A DNA stretch of 64,000 nt. It comes from Escherichia phage BYEP01. The stretch is taken from sequence record OR757453.1; one strand, written 5' to 3'. The notes below the pieces were generated by a model. The model made no database searches and was not told the DNA's origin. It worked only from the letters and a program-made list of their open reading frames with translations. A program made the translations under genes and the position numbers. This document shows positions 31,508 through 32,847 of this stretch, in pieces (the stretch's first letter is position 1; the number at the start of each line of letters is the position of its first letter).

Positions 31508-32068
31508 ATGATTAATAAAATTGTGCATGAAATGGCTTTAAACGGAGATTCATATAAAATATCTGCCGTAGTTGAGAATTTCATACTTAATAAAGTAAAA
31601 GAATATTTCACTGATTGTTCAGTTAGTTATCAAGAAAAAATGGTTTTAACTGACGATACTGAAAAATCAAATAATTTGTTTTGTTCGAATTTTACAACTA
31701 AGAAGCGTACTAGAAGATTTGATATTGTTATTTCTCGCAACGGTAAAAAGCATATAATTGAAATCAAACATCAAGTTGGTGGAGGTACAGCTATTGATTC
31801 TGTTGGAATATATTTAGAAGATAAAGATAAATTAAAAGAATACACAAAAACTGAAAATCCTGTGTCATTGATGATATTAGATTTTTTGCCATGTGGTTAT
31901 TATCCACGCAATAAATGGACAAAAAGAGAATCATTTACTGATAATCCAACCATCCAAGCAAGGTTTAATGAATATGCTAAATCACAAAACGTGTTAGTAT
32001 TACTATCAAATACATATGACGAAGAATTATATAATTCGTTTTTTGCTGCAATAAATGAGAGAATATAA
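31508..32068 (+). CDS. hypothetical protein with PD-(D/E)xK nuclease-like motif, 186 aa
   Basis: Motif [18 protein letters not shown] (D-x13-E-x-K); stop overlaps dam ATG (TAATG). Confidence 0.5.
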
Positions 32069-32847
32069 TGCTAGGAGCTATTGCGTATACAGGTAATAAA
32101 CAATCATTATTACCTGAACTTAAGTCTCACTTTCCAAAATATGATAGATTCGTGGATTTATTTTGCGGAGGTTTATCAGTATCTTTGAATGTCGATGGTC
32201 CTGTACTGGCTAATGATATTCAAGAACCAATTATTGAAATGTATAAACGTCTTATTAGCGTGTCATGGGATGACGTTTTAAAAGTAATAAAGCAATACAA
32301 ATTGTCAAAAACTTCAAAAGAAGAGTTTTTGAAATTACGTGAAGATTATAATAAAACTAGAGATCCTCTTTTGCTTTATGTTCTTCATTTTCATGGGTTT
32401 AGTAATATGATTCGCATAAACGACAAAGGAAATTTTACTACTCCATTTGGAAAAAGAACCATAAACAAAAATAGTGAAAAACGTTTTAATCACTTTAAAC
32501 AAAATTGTGATAAAATAATTTTTAGCTCATTGCATTTTAAAGATGTCAAAATTCTAGATGGCGATTTTGTATATGTTGATCCTCCATATCTCATAACAGT
32601 TGCCGATTATAATAAATTTTGGTCAGAAGACGAAGAAAAAGACCTTTTAAATCTTTTAGACTCTTTAAATGATAGAGGAATAAAATTTGGACTGTCGAAT
32701 GTTTTAGAGCACCACGGAAAGGAAAACACTCTTCTTAAAGAATGGTCTAAAAAATATAATGTTAAGCATCTTAATAAAAAATACGTCTTTAACATATATC
32801 ATTCCAAAGAAAAGAATGGAACTGACGAAGTATATATTTTTAATTAA
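32068..32847 (+). CDS. dam: DNA adenine methyltransferase Dam, 259 aa
   Basis: DPPY catalytic motif and FCGG SAM-binding motif; length 259 aa. Confidence 0.9.

Follow-up and report, generated by a model that had tools for sequence, protein, structure and literature searches.

The described systems closest to the one considered here are of several kinds. In DpnII/MboI (PF04556), the nuclease is partnered by DpnM, a D12-class GATC adenine methylase. The chlorella virus enzyme CviAI, which is GATC specific and blocked by adenine methylation, and EcoP1I of phage P1 belong to restriction-modification (R-M) systems that are encoded by viruses. Another kind comprises the orphan Dam methylases, such as T4 Dam and P1 Dmt; the usual origin of orphan methylases is loss of the restriction gene with retention of the methylase gene. 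T4 Dam, whose GATC specificity has been established biochemically, has an in vivo role that was called unclear in a 2025 review (PMC12707154). Here, we describe a putative type II R-M system, divergent in sequence and unusual in its carrier, in a 64,000-nucleotide stretch of Escherichia phage BYEP01 (record OR757453.1), which we refer to as the window. The putative system consists of dam and, directly upstream of it, a 186-residue open reading frame (ORF; 31508..32068, + strand, ATG start) that very probably encodes a restriction-type endonuclease, as judged from its sequence and a structural model.

Like DpnII/MboI, the ORF has a D12-class GATC adenine methylase as its partner, and this family is also its best (if weak) sequence affinity; RFDxVI and IEx motifs are shared, and E23, D72, and E85 of the ORF pair with invariant acidic residues of DpnII in a profile alignment of low probability. 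It differs in its length (186 versus approximately 288 residues), in having a canonical ExK where DpnII has ExN, in the order of the cassette (restriction gene, then methylase gene), and in its apparent restriction to T4-like phages, with no cellular homologue found. The alpha-class type IIP enzymes MunI and EcoRI, which the ORF resembles in structure (see below), are only 12% identical to it, with no detectable sequence homology, and its partner methylase indicates GATC rather than the CAATTG of MunI. As with CviAI and EcoP1I, the nuclease and the methylase that guards against it would both be virus encoded. However, they strike unmethylated host or superinfecting DNA, whereas the cassette described here resides in a phage with hypermodified cytosine and a Dam+ host and is likely to have another target. 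Finally, the Dam of the window is the orthologue of T4 Dam (259 residues, identical at all contact positions checked), but unlike the orphan Dams, it has an upstream partner, and T4 reached its orphan condition through deletion of that partner.

RESULTS

Predicted fold and candidate active site

In an AlphaFold2 model built from six family members (predicted local distance difference test [pLDDT] score, 80; predicted template modeling score, 0.78), the ORF forms a single compact domain with an alpha/beta restriction-endonuclease-like core. The D...(D/E)-x-K elements lie on adjacent strands, D72 on strand 66-77 and E85 and K87 on strand 80-88, and E23 is on a long N-terminal helix (residues 15-33). 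The top structural matches of the model are orthodox type IIP enzymes, and the similarity to EcoRI/MunI-like members of this group spans most of the chain; Foldseek searches of the PDB and BFVD agreed on a restriction-endonuclease-like fold, at lower significance. The restriction enzymes among these matches are of what we take to be the EcoRI-like class, which leaves 4- to 5-nucleotide 5′ overhangs, and DpnII/MboI also cut GATC to leave 5′ overhangs of that kind. The preliminary description of this locus had proposed a restriction-endonuclease-like core from a sequence motif, and structure prediction (AlphaFold2 and Foldseek) gave that fold rather than a nonnuclease one.

The motif runs from F71 to H88 (31718..31771, + strand), with D72 encoded at 31721-31723, E85 at 31760-31762, and K87 at 31766-31768. 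The 18-letter peptide and its D, E, and K residues are as first described, although the spacing is D72-x12-E85-x-K87 and not D-x13-E-x-K. Motif evidence of this kind had been called weak at the outset, with good reason: strings of the form D..ExK are common by chance, and the motif by itself proves little. What raises it above chance is the invariance of D72, E85, and K87 in an alignment of nine homologues with identities down to 30%, their position on adjacent strands, and the purifying selection acting on the gene. Also invariant in this alignment are E23, the H-Q that follows K87, G93-T-A-I-D-S98, P118, S120, and D125. E23 (codon 31574..31576, + strand), an acidic residue that pairs with E152 of the DpnII family, is a candidate metal ligand. 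The segment G91-G-G-T-A-I-D-S98 (31778..31801, + strand), of which G93 to S98 (GTAIDS) is invariant, comes just after the catalytic lysine; it has a comparatively low pLDDT (59) in the DNA-free model and may be a DNA recognition loop.

The ORF matches PHROG family phrog_8706 (function unknown) from end to end (E value, 2e-115) and is present at an identity of at least 95% in approximately 155 GenBank phage records. Relative to Shinka and T2, it shows 12 to 16 synonymous differences and only 2 to 4 nonsynonymous ones; the ratio of nonsynonymous to synonymous substitution (dN/dS) is 0.04 to 0.055 for the ORF and 0.023 for dam. By these sequence comparisons, the ORF is under strong purifying selection and is a real gene. 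In two records (G4500 and G29), it is broken into two pieces.

Linkage to a T4-Dam-type methylase

The preliminary description had placed the ORF just 5′ of dam, with its stop codon overlapping the dam ATG, and this is what the window contains: the ORF stop codon (TAA, 32066-32068) and the ATG of dam (32068-32070) have one A in common, giving TAATG. The dam gene (32068..32847, + strand) encodes a 259-residue T4-Dam-type N6-adenine methylase, the putative methylase subunit, just as the ORF encodes a PD-(D/E)XK restriction-endonuclease-like protein, the putative restriction subunit. The methylase is recognized by Pfam MethyltransfD12 (E = 1e-50) and TIGR00571 (235 bits), and its gene is 95 to 99% identical in DNA to the dam genes of T2 and T4. 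DPPY and residues K11, F111, S112, R116, P126, and R130, the last six being positions at which T4 Dam touches GATC in its complex with DNA, are invariant in all of the cassette methylases; with these positions kept, all should share the GATC specificity of T4 Dam.

Wherever the context could be read (8 of 8 cases), a homologue of the ORF stands directly 5′ of a T4-Dam-type D12 methylase gene, abutting it, overlapping it, or 13 nucleotides from it. Between genes 61 and 56, the two genes overlap by 1 nucleotide in the window and in MX01 (Dhakavirus) and are separated by 13 nucleotides in T2, following a frameshift. In the Klebsiella phage SmallBear, the pair (7-nucleotide overlap) lies between denB and ndd. 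The remaining contexts are metagenomic: the P0002 contig (1-nucleotide overlap, after gene 61 and a 93-residue gene-56-like ORF), the P0007 contigs (abutting, after gene 61), the 1.5-kb P0011 contig (35-nucleotide overlap), and the P0014 contig (20-nucleotide overlap, immediately upstream of rIIA). The cassette thus occupies at least three different genomic positions. Moreover, pairwise identities among the nuclease-like proteins (28 to 97%) track those among the methylases (51 to 98%), with a Spearman rho of 0.80; by this measure, the two proteins codiverge. Together with the presence of both genes in approximately 146 records, these results bear out the coconservation across T4-like genomes that had been envisaged. 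The cassette therefore has two attributes of a type II R-M system: its genes are separate, adjacent, and coinherited, and its methylase has a defined specificity.

The presence/absence polymorphism of the cassette at the 61/56 junction also brings to mind a free-standing homing-type endonuclease, which would cut a single site near this junction in cassette-less phages and spread by recombinational repair in mixed infections, with dam as a passenger or as an immunity gene. We find this improbable. Strict coinheritance and codivergence with a GATC methylase is foreign to the known T4 homing genes, which are of the GIY-YIG or HNH type; the fold is unlike that of the seg and mob products, the closest structures being orthodox type IIP enzymes; and the empty site in RB32 contains neither GATC nor an obvious palindrome.

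The plasmid-encoded proteins most similar to the phage Dam (approximately 35 to 42% identity), mostly Gram positive (L010, L011, and L013 to L017), are usually fused or doubled methylases. Genuine DpnII was sought beside these plasmid homologues; in seven of the nine neighborhoods inspected, the partner was of the AlwI or FokI type, quite unlike the ORF, and the other two contained no annotated nuclease. Outside the T4-Dam subfamily, resemblance to Dam is therefore not enough to assign GATC specificity.

Sequence affinity and distribution of the nuclease-like family

Profile comparison with PD-(D/E)XK families, as suggested in the preliminary description, gave a weak but repeated affinity for DpnII, BanI, and PDDEXK_11, with none of these matches above threshold. 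DpnII was matched by 4 of 9 family members at E < 1 (best E value, 8e-5), and weaker matches to BanI, PDDEXK_11, and SfsA followed; the PADLOC model REase_II, a type II restriction enzyme model of DpnII length, gave E values of 5e-6 to 5e-5. For a direct comparison by hhalign, a DpnII profile was made from 16 database DpnII-family proteins of low diversity. An S. pneumoniae DpnII sequence served as a probe only; it scored 336 bits against PF04556 (1-277 of 278) and was 99% identical to database protein P0017. The hhalign alignment paired E23, D72, and E85 of the phage family with the invariant E152, D201, and E214 of DpnII and paired K87 with N216. Sequence searches of the PDB (with both the single sequence and the profile) found nothing at E ≤ 10, and NCBIfam held no meaningful match.

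A word-indexed protein search yielded 10 matches to the ORF, and an exhaustive hidden Markov model search of 1.84 billion representative proteins yielded 11, one of which (P0016) is a low-complexity artifact. A pattern scan of 185,579 bacterial and archaeal species genomes found no relatives, and IMG/VR contributed only two. Within the searches made, the family appears to be restricted to T4-like phages. In the metagenomic proteins P0008 and P0010, the C-terminal part of the ORF is joined to unrelated N termini (epimerase-like PF01370; PF18343/PF03590); these are probably assembly or gene-calling chimeras rather than true fusions. The Shinka record labels the ORF a "putative DpnII restriction endonuclease," and nearly all other GenBank records call it a hypothetical protein. 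Topical searches of the literature gave no description of the ORF or of the T4 deletion (see below), although a passing mention in the older T2/T4 dam sequencing papers is possible.

States of the locus and the T4 deletion

A 949-bp probe over the left junction of the cassette matched 503 Tequatrovirus-type records. The promoter-like site described below, the ORF, and the start of dam were present together in 145 of these; approximately 35, T4 included, had dam with a 3′ remnant of the ORF (the match falling into two pieces); and approximately 320 (some 64%) matched in the left flank only and had neither gene. In all, dam was found in 183 records, and an intact ORF was found in approximately 146 records of the Tequatrovirus type and in 8 others that are more distant. 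Among the matches listed, no ORF without dam was seen, judging from the equality of the counts (145 with both genes versus approximately 146 with the ORF). In the empty state, represented by RB32, nothing separates gene 56 from gene 61 and the 66-residue ORF that adjoins it, and homology between the window and RB32 (L019) stops at approximately 31418 and restarts at approximately 32888.

T4 differs from the window by a 549-bp deletion (31436..31984, + strand; comparison of the window with T4 GT7 locus L003). It removes the promoter-like site and codons 1 to 158 of the ORF, and its breakpoints lie in a direct-repeat microhomology, ATCGCAAA / ATCACAAA. The remnant, from codon 159 onward (codons 159 to 179 are kept), is noncoding and still provides the ribosome-binding site of dam. 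The solitary status of T4 Dam is therefore a derived state, reached by loss of its upstream partner. A run of thymines in the 3′ part of the ORF is polymorphic in length, with six in the window (32039..32044, + strand) and five in T2 (L020, 2290-2305) and in the T4 remnant (L003, approximately 2556). In T2, the shorter run cuts the ORF to 181 residues ending in ...FLLQ, 13 nucleotides short of dam and uncoupled from it.

Layout of the cassette and neighboring genes

The accessory cassette (promoter-like site, nuclease-like ORF, and dam; 31419..32850, + strand) is absent en bloc from RB32-type Tequatroviruses. A consensus scan identified a T4-early-type promoter-like site (31453..31482, + strand), with GTTTAC at 31453-31458, an 18-nucleotide spacer, and TATTAT at 31477-31482. 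TG precedes the TATTAT, and approximately 55 nucleotides separate the site from the ATG of the ORF. By consensus match, an equivalent GTTTAC(A)/TATAAT-like pair is found at an equal distance in L009, L006, L002, L005, and MX01. Around the −10 hexamer is an inverted repeat (31460..31500, + strand), with arms TTCTCAGC (31460-31467) and GCTGAGGA (31493-31500), the 3′ arm of which includes the Shine-Dalgarno sequence GAGG (31496-31499). The RNA fold z score at the repeat is −2.1 in the window, −3.5 in L009, −5.0 in L002, and −5.7 in L005; the corresponding sites of L006 and L004 gave no significant fold. Inverted repeats, each of different sequence, bracket the −10 hexamer in the cassettes of L009, L002, L005, and L025. 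The repeat could gate the translation of read-through transcripts, by analogy with T4 gene e and I-TevI, or it could be an operator.

This last option would fit a relic, a former restriction enzyme that no longer cuts or has taken on another task, such as regulating dam by binding DNA or serving as a cofactor of Dam. The ORF is shorter than DpnII-family enzymes, and loss or damage has struck it more than once (by deletion in T4, by frameshift in T2, and by splitting in two records), as might be expected of such a relic. However, every catalytic residue is invariant at 30% identity and dN/dS is approximately 0.05; MunI, with 200 residues in its solved chain, demonstrates that such a size is enough for a complete type IIP enzyme; and it is normal for active restriction genes to be lost repeatedly while the methylase is kept. 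We therefore consider a relic very doubtful.

The neighbors of the cassette (gene 61, dam, gene 56, and soc) mark the window as that of a T4-like phage. Upstream is the primase gene 61 (30179-31207, + strand); downstream of dam come the dCTPase gene 56, a homing-endonuclease gene, and soc, all on the + strand. Between gene 61 and the cassette is the 66-residue ORF (31204-31404, − strand), which encodes a hydrophobic protein (phrog_2024, function unknown), is convergent with gene 61, and shares 4 nucleotides with the end of that gene. A late-promoter-like sequence, GATAAATA, precedes it. It is kept in T4, RB32 (RB32ORF030w), MX01, and others, and it is not annotated in the T4 GT7 record. The homing-endonuclease gene is a 229-residue ORF (33398-34087, + strand) that lies between gene 56 and soc and overlaps the end of gene 56; it matches phrog_314 (E value, 2e-23) and nothing in Pfam. 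It is missing from this position in Shinka, RB32, T4, and MX01 and thus represents a second mobile gene for a nuclease, located 1.3 kb away from the cassette.

GATC depletion

Of the palindromic tetranucleotides, GATC shows the strongest depletion in the window, with 61 occurrences against 195 expected (observed/expected ratio, 0.31); the second most avoided, TCGA, has a ratio of 0.64. The ratio for GATC is also 0.31 in RB32 (L021, 1-50000), which has neither the ORF nor dam, and in the Klebsiella phage locus (L002). Given equal depletion in a cassette-less phage, the avoidance is lineage wide; it fits the idea of competition between phages (discussed below) and is no proof of it. Other explanations have been proposed for GATC avoidance in coliphages. 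In phiX174, GATC is entirely absent (PMC5014478).

DISCUSSION

The proposal that this locus is an R-M-like module, put forward in the preliminary description, gains support from the conservation of the catalytic residues, the low dN/dS, the linkage to Dam and codivergence with it, and the record counts. Taken as a whole, the explanation we favor, and consider probable, is that of a compact type II R-M cassette in which Dam is the methylase, the nuclease cuts GATC, and the solitary Dam of T4 arose by deletion. None of the rival explanations matches the combined data on fold, conservation, and linkage as well as this one does. On present sequence evidence, the most likely function of the nuclease is the cleavage of unmethylated GATC.

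On this R-M explanation, the ORF would be the endonuclease half and Dam the methylase half of a cassette carried by virulent T4-like phages. An early-type promoter belonging to the cassette would drive both genes, and TAATG would couple their translation. The nuclease would have a canonical, Mg-dependent PD-(D/E)XK center made up of D72, E85, K87, and probably E23. As a homodimer, it would most likely recognize GATC, the palindrome protected by Dam, and would cut only where the adenine carries no methyl group; a 4-nucleotide 5′ stagger is suggested by the EcoRI/MunI-class fold. Such an enzyme would spare the chromosome of a Dam+ host and the DNA of the phage itself, and its probable targets would therefore be GATC-unmethylated DNAs in the same cell, chiefly those of coinfecting, cassette-less T-even relatives, and the cassette would be a selfish module conferring a competitive edge. 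According to the older literature, host Dam reportedly leaves T-even DNA unmethylated, and T6 DNA is said to be without N6-methyladenine. If T-even DNA does escape host Dam, then cassette-less relatives are the obvious source of unmethylated GATC, which suggests phage-phage competition and selfish spread. The T4 condition, in turn, goes back to a deletion of 549 bp at a microhomology, through which the promoter and 158 nuclease codons were lost.

The same Dam+ host also speaks for the opposite logic, that of a DpnI-like methylation-dependent (or methylation-sensing) nuclease that cuts G(m6A)TC in the cytosine-containing DNA of the host, with the phage Dam topping up host methylation and the phage's own hydroxymethylcytosine DNA being spared. 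A host chromosome that is already Dam methylated offers no target to a methyl-sensitive enzyme; T-even phages are well known to degrade host DNA and to tell self by cytosine modification; and a nuclease fold is silent on the methylation state that it prefers. Nevertheless, we regard this explanation as quite improbable. The modeled protein is one compact domain with no winged helix or other reader domain, it matched neither DpnI nor the dam-replacing family (in Pfam and PADLOC), and its weak sequence affinity points to the methyl-sensitive DpnII family. In addition, the order of restriction gene then methylase gene, with overlapping stop and start codons, is the classical R-M layout, and approximately 64% of Tequatroviruses manage without the cassette.

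Several observations weigh against the R-M explanation that we favor. No Pfam or other curated family reaches threshold for the ORF; the best of the weak matches, Pfam DpnII, scores 17.8 bits for the window ORF and 22.5 for its best relative, the cutoff being 23. The hhalign alignment of the phage family with the low-diversity DpnII profile (E value, 5.7e-4; 83 columns) has a probability of only 29%. Furthermore, the ORF aligns to positions 140-233 of PF04556 only, leaving the N-terminal ca. 140 residues of DpnII without a counterpart. For this last reason, we do not file the ORF as a member of the DpnII family; it represents a separate small family in the PD-(D/E)XK superfamily, perhaps distant kin of DpnII. 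The biology raises difficulties of its own. Enterobacterial hosts are Dam+, which leaves little of the classical target of restriction, namely, the host or unmodified DNA entering the cell. The glucosyl-hydroxymethylcytosine of T-even DNA protects against 94% of the type II enzymes on the market (PMC7653180). This places in doubt both the cutting of sibling DNA and the need for Dam in self-protection. Finally, with the T2 allele altered at its C terminus and the T4 allele deleted, the gene is evidently dispensable in the laboratory.

A bolder possibility is that the cassette is at once a restriction weapon and a gene drive among sibling phages, cutting adenine-unmethylated GATC within hydroxymethylcytosine DNA. 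We think it unlikely. Were it true, the approximately 64% of T-even relatives that are cassette-less would be excluded or converted in mixed infections, and the carriage of Dam by T-even phages, the apparent lack of function of T4 Dam, and the 3-fold depletion of GATC in T-even genomes with and without the cassette would all be accounted for.

Leaving that possibility aside, the ORF of T2 and other Tequatroviruses, the T4 deletion, and the mobility of the locus turn the textbook puzzle of the orphan T4 Dam into one that can be approached by concrete experiments. A predicted nuclease gene that is conserved, under selection, and coupled to dam is present in T2 and in approximately 30% of the Tequatroviruses sequenced, and the pair moves among loci as a unit. 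Some 150 GenBank entries now labeled hypothetical proteins are open to reannotation. The ORF adds a compact restriction enzyme family, apparently confined to T4-like phages, and if its members cut modified DNA, they may be of practical use. A virulent phage with hypermodified DNA and a putative R-M system of its own bears on competition between phages.
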